A stretch of DNA of 62,362 nt, the filler included, from Basidioascus undulatus (Eukaryota), in the NCBI GenBank assembly GCA_000826855.1. It is 11 parts of 11 records of this genome, joined end to end, with 100 filler letters (N's around TTAATTAATTAA, not from the genome) between each part and the next. Parts side by side here need not be neighbours in the genome. Positions count along the whole stretch, not along the records: positions 3,794 to 28,428 come from JTLS01000235.1; 10 more parts are not named here. One strand, 5' to 3'. Shown here piece by piece: positions 3,694-28,528 of this stretch (position 1 is the first letter of the stretch; the number at the start of each line of letters is the position of its first letter). Under the pieces are notes generated by a model. That model ran no database searches. It worked only from the letters and a program-made list of their open reading frames with translations, and was not told the origin of the DNA. The position numbers and the translations under genes are program-made.

Positions 3694-3793
3694 NNNNNNN
3701 NNNNNNNNNNNNNNNNNNNNNNNNNNNNNNNNNNNNNTTAATTAATTAANNNNNNNNNNNNNNNNNNNNNNNNNNNNNNNNNNNNNNNNNNNN
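3694..3793. other. Artificial contig spacer (N44-TTAATTAATTAA-N44)
   Basis: 100-nt N run containing a six-frame stop linker. Confidence 0.98.
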
Positions 3794-6356: not shown

Positions 6357-6641
6357 TCAGGGGGAAGGAAAAAGGGTCAACGCGCCTGTGCAGAAGAAGC
6401 ATGACTCCACCGGGCACGGCCCCGCGAGCACGGCAGCCATCTCCCCCGGCGTGATACGGCGCTCGAGCGAGAGGGGGACGCCGTACCCTGCGCGTGAGAG
6501 CGCGTCCCGCCAGAAAGCGTCGTCGGCACAGAGCGAGCGAAGGGAGGTGCATGTGCGGGAAAACGCGACGGCTGAGGGGAGGGGGAGGAAGTCCCGCAGG
6601 GCGAGAAGGGTCTCGGAGGGGAGATAGAGGAGGGCGGTCAT
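6357..6641 (-). CDS. F-box domain protein, N-terminal exon
   Basis: MTALLYLPSETLLALRDFLPLPSAVAFSRTCTSLRSLCADDAFWRDAL matches the F-box consensus (LLxLPxE...S.TC..L..L..D..W). Confidence 0.7.
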   Translation of the reverse strand: MTALLYLPSETLLALRDFLPLPSAVAFSRTCTSLRSLCADDAFWRDALSRAGYGVPLSLERRITPGEMAAVLAGPCPVESCFFCTGALTLFPSP

Positions 6642-7224
6642 GAGGGTGGCGGGGCCTGGTGGGTTTTGGGTCAGTATTAAAGGTGTGAGGGAGTGAGCGG
6701 GGTCAGTGGTCAGGCGAAGGAGGTGGGTGAGGAGGTAACCGAAGTAAGCGAGCGCTTATGAGAGTCCGAGCTGTGAGCGTGCCTTCGAAACAAGGAAAAG
6801 GTGTTTTTAGATGGCTGTCTAAATCCATTGTTCTATCCGTTCAGCGCAGCTTTTTAGGGGCAAGAAAACTTGTTCAATTCAGTTTGAGGCGCTGAAGCTC
6901 AAGTGCCTGAGGCCAGGTTGCTAGTCGTCCGCAGCTTCAGTTTCGCTTGCCTCTCCTGCACACGGTATTTCAGGACCCATGGATGATACAGCTGCCGCTT
7001 TCGCCCTTTACTTACACGGAAAACATGTTTTAGTGTCATCAGCTTGCCACACCTGACATACTCATGCCGCCACGCTCAGTGAGCGGCTTAAACGAAGAAT
7101 AGACAGGCTTGCACTGCACTGCTTCAAGCGCGTTACGCCGGGACGCCCTATTGACAACGAAAACCAAGCATTCAGATGTTTTGGAAAGCATTGAAATTGC
7201 CAGAGGACCTCCGTTCCGCACCCC

Positions 7225-7893
7225 TCACACACACCTTTGCTCCGACAGCAGAACAAACTCAACCACCGCCCCCGGCCCTCGAGCGTCGTAATCTAGTGGA
7301 AGGACCCAAATCAGGTCTTTAAGCACGTCGGGCCTCCATGCGTGCTGTTCGTAGCCTGGGATGTCAATCCGCACAGACCGGAGCTGAGGGTCATAGTGAA
7401 CGAGCGCAGATCCCCAGTCGACGTCTCGAGGGGTACACGTAACCGAGGCTTTCATTGAAGACTTCGAGGCGCATCGGGTTTCGAAACATCAAGGAGAGTG
7501 TATGGATGCAGCAGGTATCCTCATTTGACGACCGCGCGACTCGCGGAGCAGCGCCAGGAAGGTCGCGTCCAATCGACCCCAGTCGTCCGGCAGACAAGGG
7601 ATGGAAAGATGCCTCGTGTGCCGGAGGGGAGAAAGAGAGTATGCGCGAAGGCCCGGTAGGAACCGCCCGAGTGCCGCCTCGTCTGTGATCGAAACGGAGG
7701 TGTACAGGTGTGCAGTTGCCACGGCGCCCAACTGCTTGTTGACGAGCGCGGCCGAAGCCAGGGACGGAGGGTCGAGGTACGACATAACCTCGCTCACCAG
7801 CTCGAGGATGCGGTGCCAGGTCGGCGCGGGGAAGACAGGCAAGGTGGCGGTGACGCTCATGAGGCTCGGGACTCTGGGCACGGTCGAGGACAT
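7225..7893 (-). pseudogene. F-box-like protein, probably disrupted
   Basis: MSSTVPRV...LELVSEVMSYLDPPSLASAALVNKQLGAVATAHLYTSVSI is an F-box followed by a typical basidiomycete LY..V motif. The frame stops at 7489 while coding-like sequence continues in other frames. Confidence 0.5.
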
Positions 7894-8378
7894 GTTGCGG
7901 CGCTCGGTTAGGGGGATGGATGTGATGCGTGGCGGAGTGCTAATGGGAAAAGCGAGGTGAAAGTGGAAGGGAGAGACCAAGGACAAATTGACTCGTGCGG
8001 CCGCAAATTGGGTGAGGCATGAGCGCACGGAAACAGTCCAAAAGCGGCCTGGACATATCGCGACTAACAAAACCGGTATCATCCTAGAAAAGCATGATGT
8101 TCTGCTCAGCAGAATAAGCAGGGAAAAGTGGCACTAAAAGCGTGTGGCAGGCGAGTCTCTCTCAAGAAGCTGGTAAAAGCGATGCAATAAAGTCGGGATG
8201 GCGCATGCGCCGAGGTCGTGAAGATCTACCTGAAGTATTTGAAAATCAACGTGTTCGAAGACTAAGAGTGTAAGCGATCTACTAGGATAAAACGCAATAA
8301 AATGTCCAAAGATCCCAAGAGACCCTAAAACGAAAGGATAGCCACGAAAGCCCGATACGTGAGAGGAAAAATAGTCCG

Positions 8379-9438
8379 CTAAGAAACCGCCAAAGCCAAT
8401 AACAGCGCTCCGCCTAACAGCCCCGAATGCGACATCCCTATTGCAGTTCCCCTCGCTCCGGAGGTGGTCGAGCTCTCCGCAACAGGCGTCAGTTCCCCGC
8501 CGCACGCGTCAAGGAACGCGCTCGACGCGTTGACGTACGTGCGCGCGAGCGCGGCGTTCTCGGAGACGCCGGCGGAGGGGTAGAGGGAGAGGAGACTGCG
8601 CGTGCAGGAGGAGCAGGACATGTGGGACGCGGAGGTAGACGACTTGGGGAGCGGCGTGCCGAGCGGGAGGAGGTAGAAGTAGAGCGCGGAGGGGGAGGGG
8701 GAGAAGGCCGCTTCGGCGTAGCAGTAGAGAGAGGTGCTCGAGTCGCGCTGGCAGGCGGCGGTGGAGAGGATGGGGTAGGCTTGGAGGGCTGCGTGTCGAG
8801 ACAAAGGGGAGTGAGCGGTCGAAGAAACGGGCAACAGGCACACTGCGCTGGTGCAGGGGCGGCGCGTGATAGAGATACTCACCCGTGATAGCCTGCATAA
8901 CGAGCGCGTTCTCCTGCTCGATCTCGACCGCGCACGCGTTCGTGGCCGAGAGCGTCTCGACCCACTTGGCCATGGCGTACTGGCACGCATCGCTGCGGGC
9001 GGAGCAGGACTTGTCGAGCGTGCCGACGAGGAGGGACGCGTTCGTCTGGAGCGCGTAGAAGGACGTGGAGGAGGAGAGGAGGAGGGAGAATGGCTTGCAG
9101 CCGGAGAGGGACGTCGAGCCGATGAAGGACTGGAACGCGATCGCGCAGGCTGTGGTCAAACTGTGGGGGGTTTCGTCCTCGCTCAGTCTCCCATTCCCTC
9201 CAGCCCCAAAGGCGATAGTCTCAAGATGGATCGGGAAGGCCACGCACTTTGCATATGACAAGATCGTGTCGAACGGAGCCGGGAAAGGGTTCGGCGCGAC
9301 GCCCACCTCCGGCACGGTCGCTGTCAAGTTGGCGCTCGCGTCGGACGCGGTCGCTGCGGCCGCTGGTGGCAGTGCAGCGAGCGCGGCAAGGAGGGCGAGG
9401 ACGAGGAGGAGGTTCAAGCGCCCGAATCGGCGCGCCAT
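8379..9438 (-). CDS. Cys-rich secreted, GPI-anchored conserved fungal protein (DUF7729-like)
   Basis: Signal peptide, then PFPAPFDT...C..F...C.PFSLLL..S.SF...C...C...QA..ALQAY...AC...YCY...LYFY.LPLG..LP...CSSCT, then a C-terminal omega site and hydrophobic tail (SGARG...GALLLALAVS*). Two GT-AG introns. Confidence 0.75.
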
Positions 9439-11540
9439 GATTATTGCGGTTCTTCGGGCGAGAACCGGATGAGGGTCGTAAACGAAATTGAAGGAGTGCG
9501 GTTGTGCAAATGAGTGTGAAGGTGTCTGGGCAGTGTGTCGCCCGCCAGTGGAGGACTAGGGTGCTGGTACCGTGTCGTGAAGGGAGATGCAGGAGGAGAG
9601 GATGAGGATGAGGATGAGGAAAAAGGCCGTGATGATGGAGCAGATCGAGGGCGACGCGGGAAGGCACGACGGCGGCCTCGTGTTAAAGAGTGAGGCCTCG
9701 GCCCCTCTCTGTTCCTCCCGCCAGACCCTCATCCTCTGCTCCCCTCTGCCTTTCATATTACTCTTTCCGTCTGTTTCTCTAATAATAATTAGTGGTGCTA
9801 CACGTCTATTAATTGTTCTCCTGACCATGAGCATGGAAAATTGGACGGGCGAAAACAAAGAAGACTGAGTCTCAATGAAGCGATTTGAGACATCGCGTGG
9901 CACATGGTTAACGTACTCTTAGTGGGTTCCTGGCTGGACAAGCTCGGTGCCCTCCAACGCACGCAAGCTCGTTGCGCAAGAAAGGTCCCGTTGAGCATGG
10001 ACGAACAGCTTGGCAACTTATTCCTGCTGAAGTTTGTAAGTTGCATCCTGCTTTCTGTGGGTAGGCAGCGAGGCTCTGCGGGAAGGAAACGCGGGTGGTT
10101 CAGGCAAATTTTGAACTCGAGGTCGCAGTGAATGTCACGGTTGCGGACGGGTCGCCGCCTGATTGAGCACAGCCCAATATTCTTCTAAGTAGTAGGACAC
10201 CTATGGGCTACTGTAAAGTCCCCGTTACCACGGTATCATTCCTGACTTGGCGCACCATCGCTATTCCGATCAATCCAGGAGCGCAGCCTTAGCTCGTGCT
10301 TCTCCTGCTCCTCATTCCGACGTAGCGGCCGCGCACACTTGGACTGCTGCGCATCCGATTATTTGCCTATCGTGGAAGACCCTGAGGGAAACTCATTTGT
10401 GTCGCGAGGGCTGGTCAGTGGTCGAATCCCCCGCGTTCGTTCGTGTACATGCCCTCGTCCTTCACTACTCGTTCTCGTTGCGAATGTGGTCCAAAGTCCT
10501 CAAATATACACGACATAAACTCAAGAGGTGCATCAGGGACCACTGGAATTCTCTCGTTTGGGCGCCAGCTGCCTTGAAGAGGCTGACACAGCCAAGAGAC
10601 GGTGCAGGCGAAAGCACAGCATGCTCCCCAGTTGGATTCAACACCGTGGGAACGAAGTATCAGGGGGAGACTACTGAGAACCTAGACCGACATGCTCAAC
10701 AAGTCACCCAAAAAATTCTCAGATTAGGTGCCTCCTTGTAAGTTGCGAGGGGGTTGCCAGCAAGAGGCACATTCAATGCTGCCGGTCTACATCTTTCTCT
10801 CGGGACTTATTCCATTGAGGGAACAAGAAGGAACCTTTAACTGTTTCTATATCCCATTTTGAATGCTGAATGTCACAAATGAGGGCCTGCGAACTGGAGT
10901 GGTAGCGGGAATTGTTAGTGTAGGAAAACGTTGTGAATCTCTGAAGTTGGGTGGTGAAACCATCATTCAGGGGTGTGGGGAAATTTAAAAGAAGGTGAAT
11001 CGAAAAATTGTTGGTTATCCATGGACGGTTGTAAGGATTGAGAATAGGGCGGTATACGTCTTCTAGGAAGCAGTCGGGCTGCTCTCTTGTTTATTCACTG
11101 CGGTGTATGGATTGGGTCGAAGTTCTGTATGGGCCACTAGAACGTTTATCTGATGTTAATTCTTAATCAGATATTTTATCGGTATGTAATCAATGCTATA
11201 CCATTGAAGCGAGTGCGATGAGATGTGCCTGTAAGAGCTGAGGCAGTCCGGCCCGTAAAAGTTGCACGTGCTGGCCTTCACAGGCTCGCTGACGGCATGT
11301 GTCTCCATTGTGATACTTCAAGACTCTCTATTATGGGGCCCATAGTAATGGGTTGCCTAGATGTATGCGCACCGGGGAATTGCGGACCATGTAGTCTTGA
11401 CGCGACTGTGCCATCTGACAACCACACCTTCCTCCACCTCATCATAGAGCGATAACACAGGCGTCGAAGGAGGGAAGCAGTCCTCTCTACCAAACAGCCA
11501 TCATCCTCTCCCTCCCCCTTAACCGTGTTGCCAACCTAAT

Positions 11541-12490
11541 ATGTCCTCCGATAAACCGACGTTGCCCATCGACATCACCTCCGACACGACCTGCCCGTGG
11601 TGTTTCATCGGCTTCCAGCGCCTGCAGCGCGCGATTGCCTCGCCCGAAGTGCAGAAGCTGAACGTGAACATAGAGGTCCGCTTCCGGCCGCCGCGACCGA
11701 AGCGCTCGCGGTACGATGCGAAGTTTGGTATTGCCGGGGATCAGCATACGGATGCTACGCAGGTGCGTGCTGGAGAAGCTTCAGAGGCGTTGTGGGAGAT
11801 AGCGGGCTGATGGGTTTGGAATGGGACAGCTCCGTATTGCACTTGCGGCAGAGGAGGAGGGCATCCAGTTCCGCTGGGGCGGCGTGACGGGGCGGACGAC
11901 GGACTCTCACAGCTGCTGGAGAAGGCGTGGGAGAAGGGCGGGTCGGGTCTGCAGGTTAAATTCGCGGAAATTGTCTGCAAAGTGAGTTTTTTTGTCTTTA
12001 ATGTGCAAAGGTTTGCTGACCGCCGATTGGCAGGGATACAACGAGGAGGAGCAGGACGTCAGTTCGCACGCGTACTTGGCGTCGGCCGCCGAGAGTGCGC
12101 GCGTATTCTCGGAGAGCGAGGCTTTGGAATGGCTGAAGGGTAGCTTGTTCTACATGCGGTGGAAGGGAAATCCCTATGCTGACTGTGGTGCAGGCGACGA
12201 CTGCCTACGCGACGTCCAGCAGGGGTTTTTGCGTGCGAAGTCGTACGGCGTCGACAGTGTCCCGTGAGTGGTAGACATCCCAGAATGCATGGGCGAGCTG
12301 CAGCTGAACTCGTTTCACACTTCCTCCTGCAGGTATATTGTTATTGACAATCGCGCGGCCGTCACGGGTATGCGTTCGTGATGCCTTCGAGCTCGTTTCT
12401 CGCTGACCTTGCTTGGCTACAGGCGTCGAGGATATTGGGCTCTTCATTAAGGAGATTCAGCTTTGCGCAGAGAACCCCACCCCTTACTGA
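11541..12490 (+). pseudogene. DsbA/FrnE-like thioredoxin-fold protein with a 1-nt frameshift
   Basis: IDITSDTTCPWCFIGFQRL (CxxC); FRWGGVTGRTTDSH then, in a shifted frame at ~11912, LLEKAWEKGGSGLQ; later GVDSVP-YIVID (cis-Pro loop); stop at 12488-12490. Confidence 0.75.
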
Positions 12491-12619: not shown

Positions 12620-14580
12620 TTACGCCGCAGCTTTGATAGCCGCTTGATACTCCGTAATCGCGTCTGCCTTGACCTGGAGTGACCGAAAGCGTGAGCCTGC
12701 TGCGTACGACATGAGTAGCGGGTATGCACGCACCTTGTTGAACTGGTCGACAAGCGCCTGCGTCTGAGCGTTGTACTGGTTAACAAGGTCCGTCTTCCCC
12801 GCGTTGTAGTTGTCGCTGTAGACCTTCGTAGCGTCGTTGACTTCCGCCTTGTACGTCGCGAGGTTGGCGTTGTCCGCCGCGCTGAAGCGCGCCTTCGCGT
12901 CGGCAACCGTAGCGTCGAACTGCTGCTTCGCGGCCGTGTAGAGCTTACCGCGGTCCGCGGCCATCGCATCGAGCTTCGTCTGTCGCCCAAAAAATGTGGT
13001 TCAGTACTCCTCCAGAACCAGCTCGGTTTATGATAGAACACGCACCTTGTACTCCGCGAGGGCGGCGGCGAGCTTCGTGTTGTAGTCCGCGTTGGCGGCC
13101 GCGGTGGCGTTGTTGTACACGTCCTTGGCGCCCGCTGAATCGCCGTTGAAGACGTCCTTGAGGGAAGTCCGGTTGGCGAAGTAGGTCTATTCAATTGTGC
13201 GTTTTTATAAGCACGTAATTGACCGACTGTACGGAAAAGGTAGACCCGGACTCACGTTCTTGAAGTCCACCGTTCGGTTGTTGTAGATGTCCTTGAGAGC
13301 ATTGCCCATGGTCGTGATGTTCGAGTTGACTTGGACACCGAGAACGCCGATGGCGGCGTTCGTCGCTTTGGCAGCAGTATCGATCGTAGTCTGATAGTTG
13401 GCGAGGGCCTGCGCCTTCTTGGCTGCGGCGATCTGTCGGAGTAGGCAGTTTATGGTCAGTTTCGGATTGTGTAAGATTTTAACTGCTCGTGAGAAAAGAG
13501 CGGGCCTCGGGAGGCGTCTGAATGTCGGTCAAGGAAGAGGTGTCGGCGTCCGCAGGCAGGAGGGAAAAGTCGATGCAGTTCTGTGTGCTTGATGGTGAGC
13601 TACACAGAAGCGGGCTTCAAAGAGAAAAGAAACACTACGTACGGCATAGTACTGCTGGGTGTTCTGTGTAGGCTCAAGAAGGTAAGAAATCGATCACCTT
13701 TTACTGAATACGAACAATCATACCGGGCTGAGCCACATCCACCTGTTGGAACGCACATGTCAGGTCGCGTCACTATTTATGGCAAACGAAGCTGTGCGCA
13801 CTGCAATGCACAGGCGCCTGGAGTCGAACATTGGCCTTGCAGCTCCTCCGGAAGGGAGAATGTCCAGTCGATGTCGTCGGGCTGCGCGGGAAGCGAAGCG
13901 AGATAGCCGTTCTCTTCGGGCGACGACCAGGTCTTGATGGTGTGGAGGATGGTGTTCGAAGCGAGGGAAATGATTGAGGCATTGGCGTAGCTGTGAGGGT
14001 GATCATGTTGAGTACGATGCCGCTCGCACTCAGGCCTGCGAAGACGCACCCTGCGTGGTACGCGGTGAACTCATGGTGGACCTTGACCGTTTGGCCGACA
14101 GCCCAGGTGTGGATAGTGGTATTGTACTGATCCGCATATTGCTGGGTGGAAGATGGAAGTTAGTAACTCCCCCAAGCACATGGCCGAAAGACGAAGTCAA
14201 GTACCATGCCGCGACAGTGCCTGCCGAGCACAACGTCAGTGACTTGCGAACGGCAGGGGAATTGAATACTCACCAGATATCGCAACCATCCAGCGGCTTG
14301 GGTACCTTGTTTATGTACGAATACCAGTCCACGCCCCACCGCCATTCCATCGGACCGTTGGGCAAGTTGGAATTGATTTGGTTCGTCCAACGCTCGCCGC
14401 ACTTCTCAGTCATGCTGGGGGGGTCTCGGTCAACTCATTTTGCTACCCTTGAATCCAGCACGATGTAACTTGTACTCACGCTGGGCCCGGTTTTCGTGTT
14501 TGCGGATACACGATGCGTCCATGACCCAAAGCAGAGCTTGCGAGAGCGAGCGCGAGGAGCAGCTGAGTAATGGGGGCCAT
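12620..14580 (-). CDS. Secreted histidine-brace LPMO-like (chitin-binding type-4/AA13-related) domain fused to an Ala-rich hendecad helical tail
   Basis: 12 exons. 19-aa signal MAPITQLLLALALASSALG, then HGRIVYPQTRKPGPAMTEKCG...CDIWHCRGMQY...FTAYHAGYANASII...QCSTPGACALQWMWLSPNTQQYYANCIDF. A phase-0 GC-AG intron (13433-13505) then joins it to IAAAKKAQALANY...AAIKAAA*. Confidence 0.75.
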
Positions 14581-28428: not shown

Positions 28429-28528
28429 NNNNNNNNNNNNNNNNNNNNNNNNNNNNNNNNNNNNNNNNNNNNTTAATTAATTAANNNNNNNNNNNNNNNN
28501 NNNNNNNNNNNNNNNNNNNNNNNNNNNN
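28429..28528. other. Artificial contig spacer
   Basis: N44-TTAATTAATTAA-N44. Confidence 0.98.

Follow-up and report, generated by a model that had tools for sequence, protein, structure and literature searches.

Does the minus strand at positions 14580-12620 encode one secreted protein in which a copper-binding head is mounted on a long helical tail and, if so, what are the head and the tail? The gene lies in a window of 62,362 nucleotides (filler included) from Basidioascus undulatus. This window consists of several contigs joined by N spacers (3694-3793, 28429-28528 and later), and contig C1501, which carries the gene, occupies only positions 3794-28428. The gene is intron-rich, and the size and content of its introns point to a basidiomycete. 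The 12 exons proposed in the sequence-only reading of this locus splice in frame, and their coordinates all agree. The spliced sequence of 1272 nt encodes 423 amino acids plus a stop, with no internal stop. The product begins with a leader of 19 aa, followed by the head (about 180 aa), a linker of 20 aa and a tail of 205 aa. Ten of the 11 introns have GT-AG ends and are 53-69 nt each; the eighth is GC-AG.

By sequence comparison, the head is an AA16 domain. An exon-5 profile from three paralogs was compared with 177,635 PDB sequences, and its sole match at E<0.001 was 7ZE9 (E 3e-8). This entry is MtAA16A, the only solved relative of the head. Exon 5 of this gene alone matched 7ZE9 at E 5.6e-4. 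Furthermore, the spliced model matched an AA16-CBM1 protein at E 8e-23 (library-scaled), and the spliced head aligned end to end with five full-length database AA16s at 28-33% identity (pairwise E 3e-29 to 1e-24). An 'AA13-related' family had been suggested for this head, and that label has to be replaced by AA16, given that 7ZE9 was the sole PDB match. AA13 structures are present in the PDB, and the exon-5 queries gave no LPMO chain besides 7ZE9 at E<=10 and E<=1. Against a representative protein library, the exon-5 profile had 20 matches, nine of which spanned the profile and were AA16-like; the other 11 matched it only piecemeal, over many short stretches, and were not considered further. 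The Pfam model LPMO_10 (PF03067) was matched by none of eight single exons and gave no match in the genome scan. In AA16-like relatives, it was found at E<=0.1 in 5/9 and over the cut-off in 1/9.

The residues of the head were mapped to 7ZE9 via a bridge protein, P0021, which matched 7ZE9 at E 2e-76 as its sole PDB match at E<0.001. Across six aligned AA16 heads, 28 positions are invariant, including His1, Trp164, Gln171 and the six cysteines Cys20, Cys59, Cys64, Cys152, Cys158 and Cys176. Exon 1 (14480-14580) begins with the signal-peptide-like leader (14524-14580), which ends right before the codon of His1 (14521-14523), the predicted brace ligand of the mature protein. The highest hydropathy window of the whole protein starts at residue 1, in this leader. 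Signal cleavage would leave His1 at the N-terminus, as judged from the hydropathy and from the alignment, in which it falls at the mature His1 of both 7ZE9 and AA16 proteins. Exon 2 (14274-14414) carries Cys20, Gln27, Cys59 and an L2-type region; compared with MtAA16A and AaAA16, about 7-10 aa are inserted in L2. Exon 3 (14205-14220) is a micro-exon with Cys64 and completes a conserved C-x-G-x-x-Y motif. Exon 4 (14050-14141) carries His96 (codon 14057-14055), which corresponds to the second brace His of MtAA16A. Its H-x-G-x-A-N motif aligns with AA16s, and its context is H-x-G-Y-A-N, compared with H-P-G-Y-A-N in 7ZE9. Exon 5 (13802-13990) encodes the core of the AA16 beta-sandwich, with Cys152 and Cys158, and exon 6 (13724-13742) carries Trp164, equivalent to Trp149. 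Exon 7 (13643-13663) carries Thr169 and the Q-x-Y motif, in which Gln171 (codon 13654-13652) is equivalent to Gln156 and Tyr173 (codon 13648-13646) to the axial Tyr158. Finally, exon 8 (13506-13580) encodes the last head strand, with Cys176, and the 20-aa linker, which is acidic and contains Ser, Thr and Pro.

The available text of PMC6420742 gives a signal peptide, two His and a Q-T/N-Y motif as AA16 hallmarks. With the leader, His1, His96 and Gln171/Tyr173 present, this protein has them, save that the middle residue of its Q-x-Y motif is Tyr where the family motif has Thr or Asn. The signal peptide, both histidines, the Q-x-Y motif and the paired cysteines of the sequence-only reading map onto AA16 in the alignment. 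The brace geometry of the head is predicted from 7ZE9. Two departures from MtAA16A were observed: Thr169 stands at the column of the second-sphere Asn154, with Asn168 adjacent, and Gln27 stands at the column of the pocket/surface residue Tyr27. The second-sphere Asn and Tyr27 are features of the one member MtAA16A and are not family-defining. Given Thr169 and Gln27, the chemistry of the head may differ from that of MtAA16A.

The join between head and tail depends on a non-canonical intron (13433-13505, 73 nt, GC-AG), which is predicted from its donor score, its phase and the matching intron of the C2861 paralog (named after its contig). Although the GC donor at 13505 scored highest of the 10 GT/GC sites in 13579-13441 and matches the acceptor at 13433 in phase, it is a weak donor, scoring 0.3 on a matrix built from this gene's 10 GT donors. 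An alternative GT donor at 13483 was rejected (score -7, phase mismatch with acceptor 13433). If the intron were retained, a stop would follow 8 codons in, giving a predicted tail-less AA16 of about 210 mature residues. The tail itself has no leader, and its sole in-frame ATG lies 41 codons into exon 9; GC3 is 83% in the tail vs 72% in the head. Since the lone ATG is this deep in exon 9 and the codon bias is like that of the head, the tail is hardly a separate secreted gene.

The C2861 paralog (locus L005, about 3770-1960, minus strand) is an AA16 gene with a helical 11/3 tail. Its exon 5 is 56% identical to that of this gene, and the first 24 residues of its exon-2 region are 83% identical. 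At the matching head/tail codon boundary it has a canonical GT-AG intron of 79 nt, and the tail behind this intron is rich in Ala and Lys. In the first 83 residues of that tail, the period also peaks at 3.68 (0/500 shuffles). The position of its last intron also matches that before exon 12. Beyond composition, the two tails are similar only in the last exon (p 0.015; other pieces p 0.38 and 0.08). This copy is damaged: 3/8 anchored introns are without proper ends, frameshifts are present and the His1 region is not intact. The lesions are small and include 1-nt indels, many of them in runs of G or A, so that C2861 is either a pseudogene or an error-rich consensus. Because its intron lies at the same boundary and its tail has the same 11/3 period, this paralog independently supports the fusion of a histidine-brace, LPMO-fold head to the tail, as was first read from this locus. 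The fusion architecture is, on the evidence of this alignment, old enough to be common to a paralog with 56% exon-5 identity.

The same evidence bears on whether the tail is made at all. The GC donor could be inefficient, or a decayed GT, in which case the main product would be a tail-less AA16 and the tailed form a dying relic. The weak non-canonical donor and the clean stop that retention gives 8 codons after the linker would fit, as would the damage to the other tailed copy. However, the four tail exons are intact with three canonical introns between them, GC3 is as given above, the tail is without a usable start or leader of its own, and the GC site lies at the codon boundary where C2861 has GT. 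We consider this explanation very improbable. A splice switch at the GC-AG intron between tailed and tail-less AA16 is possible; the weak donor may let some transcripts yield a free tail-less head.

Exon searches found four AA16 loci in the genome, whose heads are closely related but whose tails are of two types. The C1000 paralog (locus L006, 3631-2380, minus strand) has His1, a Ser/Thr/Ala tail (36% Ser+Thr) and a Leu-rich C-terminal helix, which could be a GPI-type or membrane signal. The C2930 paralog (locus L010, from 505, plus strand) has an insertion of about 45 aa before the last head strands. Its tail is a very long Ser/Thr tail (64% Ser+Thr in the first tail exon), with repeated V-I-V-P-P-G-V-W motifs that continue past the locus end. 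In a tree of exon 5 (64 residues, C2930 left out), this gene and C2861 are sisters (0.87), with C1000 outside (0.96). As the helical-tailed copies are sisters and the Ser/Thr-tailed C1000 comes next, the tree suggests a tail swap inside a lineage-specific AA16 expansion. AA9 is represented in the genome by 34 exon matches; they are spread over 18 contigs, 15 over the cut-off, and from these matches the host is predicted to be a cellulose-oxidising fungus.

The tail is encoded by exon 9 (13256-13432, 59 aa), exon 10 (13046-13186, 47 aa), exon 11 (12734-12979, 82 aa) and exon 12 (12620-12673, 17 aa plus stop), and the register of exon 10 is continuous with the remaining tail. These lengths, and the Ala/Asn/Lys-rich composition (49 Ala, 22 Asn and 19 Lys among 205 aa), are as the sequence-only reading had described them. 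Ser and Thr together make up 12%, and there is no Pro and no Cys. No TM or GPI-like segment was found, also in agreement with that reading: the best 19-aa Kyte-Doolittle window is 0.94 past the leader and -0.05 near the C-terminus. A Cys-linked module of the CBM1 or CBM104 type is likewise absent from the tail (0 Cys; no such Pfam match). The tail has four N-glycosylation sequons, no more than expected by chance (p 0.25).

The hendecad character of the tail was borne out. Its large hydrophobic residues have a period peak at 3.68 with a power of 4.54; the maxima of shuffled sequences average 0.76, and 0/2000 shuffles reach the observed value. The power is 3.75 at 11/3, compared with 0.16 at 7/2, 0.15 at 18/5 and 0.05 at 15/4. 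Self-identity peaks at lags 11 and 22, and the phase moves only from about 90 to about 160 degrees between the ends of the tail, with no register break. The hendecad positions a, d and h hold 32/50 large hydrophobics vs 13.6 expected, and the remaining eight positions are polar on average. Position h is mostly Tyr, Phe or Ile and is aromatic in 10/19 repeats; position d is Ala in 8/19, and position e is often Lys. In hendecad coiled coils, the core is formed by a/d/h, and crowding of the d type is relieved by Ala or a higher oligomer (PMC9858780, available part). The a/d/h core with Ala at d in this tail thus fits the small-residue rule described there.

An 11/3 period is also typical of lipid-binding helices (PMC5889406, in part), so the period by itself is not proof of a coiled coil. 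The tail could instead be a conditionally folded 3-11 amphipathic helix in the style of perilipins, apolipoproteins or LEA proteins, which would lie flat on a hydrophobic surface and tether a monomeric copper head there. Candidate surfaces would be lignin, the wax of a cuticle, a membrane or an interface between air and water. The 11-mer periodicity is unbroken over about 18 repeats, Lys lies beside the hydrophobic stripe (8 K/R at position e vs 3 at k, the e residues being K), and 3-11 helices that are long and only weakly hydrophobic are known to coat lipid surfaces (PMC5889406, in part). However, the hydrophobic face is just 3/11 positions wide and carries bulky Tyr and Phe, with Lys mainly on one flank. 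The mean hydrophobicity is 0.03-0.17, the moment is 0.2-0.3 over most of the length (range 0.13-0.34), and the net charge is about 0. In addition, Plin4 is almost free of aromatics in the account available from PMC5889406. Because the stripe is narrow and aromatic, with Lys mostly along one edge, we rank the lipid-surface reading second and consider it unlikely. The narrow a/d/h stripe and the low hydrophobic moment favour a coiled-coil rod. The sequence-only reading had left the choice between an oligomerising rod and a lipid-surface tail; the stripe and the moment tip it towards the rod.

We also compared the tail with structure predictions. Single-sequence AF2 gave a helix over residues 2-58 of exon 9 (57 residues, mean pLDDT 93). 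For the query covering exons 11-12, it gave a helix over residues 2-84 (83 residues, pLDDT 76), broken only at an intron-encoded stretch in the query. Such single-sequence runs readily give helix for Ala-rich sequences. If it were one unbroken helix, the tail would measure 31 nm, in line with the estimate of about 30 nm made earlier. A homotrimer prediction for exon 11 (82 aa, run without alignment or folded controls) scored 0.01 vs a mark of 0.32, which we count neither for nor against a trimer. A tail folded back into a monomeric helical hairpin or bundle would make a compact two-domain enzyme, for which apolipophorin-III and HsbA/Mp1 are helical-bundle models. The amphipathic helix with scattered Gly and the balanced charge along the tail would suit such a fold. 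Against it, there is no Pro and no phase jump to mark a turn, the AF2 helices are unbroken over 57 and 83 residues, and exon 11 had no sequence match in the PDB at E<=10. We therefore regard folding back as decidedly improbable.

The aromatic residues at h allow a further reading, in which the Tyr/Phe stripe is a binding track for glucan, chitin, a cellulose fibril or a partner protein, and the tail a new elongated binding module. A protein partner might take the form of a heteromeric coiled coil or a polyproline strand. Besides the aromatic residue in 10/19 repeats, two reports are consistent with a track: a helical cellulose-binding module, CBM104, exists on AA16 (PMC12678898, in part), and AA16-AA9 contact has been proposed (PMC10088020, in part). 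However, CBM104 consists of two short disulfide-linked helices, compared with 205 aa and no Cys here. Furthermore, the C2861 tail keeps the period but resembles this one in composition rather than in sequence, as would not be expected of a specific binding site, and no partner is known. This explanation is improbable.

How unusual is such a tail? AA16 members often have C-terminal extensions (PMC6420742). According to the part of PMC8615602 available, a C-terminal region of unknown kind is present in 45% of AA16, and 80% of those regions are called disordered; the roughly 20% not called disordered could include ordered tails of the present kind. The AA16 appendages on record in the available parts of PMC6420742, PMC8615602 and PMC12678898 are Ser/Thr-rich or disordered, CBM1, CBM104 or GPI. 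The tail described here differs from these in being a 205-aa hendecad helix that is predicted to be ordered. LPMO dCTRs share with it an unassigned extension directly behind the catalytic module and a near-neutral net charge. They differ in that they are predicted to be disordered and in that 86% of AA16 dCTRs are 50-150 aa long (PMC8615602, in part), compared with a strongly periodic, Pro-free tail of 205 aa. An AA16 with a helical tail was not found among the six long AA16-like database proteins examined, in searches of low sensitivity. These six were taken from seven matches of the AA16 profile among 8000 scored candidates of 341-2000 aa. Two have Ser/Thr+CBM1 tails, three are fusions to unrelated domains and the sixth has a CBM1; the seventh match is ankyrin-rich. 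None of the six database AA16 tails tested had an 11/3 signal (p 0.09-0.99).

Other searches for similar tails were also negative within their reach. The protein-database searches for the tail and exon 5, made with single exons or short exact words, have little power: exon 5 matched 0/29 candidates at E<=0.1 and the tail ORF 12623-12979 matched 0/350 at E<=1 among longer database proteins. The ESM Atlas, queried with the tail or exon 5, gave nothing usable, and Foldseek gave no match with the tail model. In metagenome contigs, exon 5 was found in 0/131 stretches. Exon 2 was found in 1/80, in what we take to be a Myb-type repeat; this match, a short word common by chance, was discarded. Pfam matches to the tail were limited to DUF4677 and Tex55, which were below the cut-off and set aside as generic helix matches. 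The tail exons matched only the gene itself in its own genome, and the literature search turned up no paper on an LPMO or AA16 with a coiled-coil tail. The search for relatives with the same tail, which the sequence-only reading had called for, thus yielded the C2861 paralog but no database AA16 at low sensitivity. That reading had also set the architecture apart from the usual LPMO appendages. AA16 is an enzyme family already described, and its members often have C-terminal extensions, so the head is ordinary; it is the helical tail that is unusual.

Long helices of related design are known from other settings. In the streptococcal antigen I/II stalk, a long helix rich in Ala, Asn, Lys and Tyr holds a head domain off the surface, and this helix pairs with a proline-rich strand of its own chain. 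The present protein is without such a strand, and there was no PDB sequence match. The hendecad coiled coils of Scy and FilP resemble the tail in their 11/3 period, a/d/h core and Ala-rich composition (PMC9858780, in part). They differ as cytoplasmic bacterial scaffolds with no sequence homology found, compared with a predicted secreted, enzyme-bearing protein. Plin4, apolipoproteins and alpha-synuclein share the long unbroken 3-11 amphipathic helix (PMC5889406, in part); the stripe here is narrower and aromatic-rich, with one-sided Lys, on a predicted secreted and enzyme-linked protein. For the head, the closest known counterparts are the AA16s MtAA16A (7ZE9) and AaAA16, which likewise have a signal peptide, His1, a second His, the Tyr of Q-x-Y, a stacking Trp and six Cys.

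Our preferred reading, to which we give a probability of roughly 0.45, is a secreted AA16 copper enzyme, H2O2-making or LPMO-like, on a nearly straight, oligomeric hendecad coiled-coil stalk. By analogy with other AA16 work, signal cleavage would let His1, His96 and Tyr173 bind one copper. Once reduced by small phenolic or other reductants, this copper would convert O2 to H2O2 and possibly cleave polysaccharide. The activity of AA16 is disputed. MtAA16A and AnAA16A are described as H2O2-producing oxidases that do not cleave polysaccharide and that boost AA9s (PMC10088020), another AA16 was reported to cleave cellulose (PMC6420742), and both views are repeated in PMC13353379, in the parts of these sources available. 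Two to four tails may zip via the a/d/h stripe, with Tyr or Phe at h, Ala at d and Lys at e. The bundle would be a rod with almost no supercoil, as long as about 30 nm, with the heads clustered at one end. Such a rod would take the spacer role held by the Ser/Thr tail in the sister paralogs and space the heads from the wall or matrix. Its likely purpose would be to gather the H2O2-making heads and hold them where hypha and substrate meet, close to the many AA9 LPMOs; the AA16-AA9 link here rests on co-occurrence in the genome only.

A bolder form of this reading takes the gene as a member of a lineage-specific AA16 subfamily that has exchanged the floppy LPMO tail for a rigid oligomeric 30-nm stalk, with a multi-headed copper-oxidase 'bouquet' as the result and the weak GC-AG intron as a toggle to a free head. 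We regard this combination as doubtful. If true, it would be the first LPMO-fold enzyme on a coiled-coil stalk to emerge from our searches, and AA16 would have a role fixed at the wall or an interface rather than as a freely diffusing booster. The stalk, if real, would give the LPMO repertoire an appendage that is ordered and oligomerises, and would offer a natural scaffold to cluster H2O2 sources beside peroxygenases in biomass cocktails. The role of appended domains in AA16 is called unclear in the available text of PMC10088020. The four paralogs, with two tail types on close heads, provide a system in which tail swaps can test location, oligomer state and AA9 boosting.

Several neighbouring genes were also noted. 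The product of 8512-9555 (minus strand) matches DUF7729 at E 8e-20 and has a signal-like start, and two F-box-like ORFs lie at 7492-8133 and 6360-6755 (both minus strand). Two ORFs downstream in the neighbour at 11542-12267 (plus strand) had no Pfam match. This neighbour is convergent with the AA16 gene and carries a D-x-x-C-P-W-C-F motif; its first frame stops near 11808, and it presumably resembles the DsbA/FrnE thioredoxin-fold proteins.
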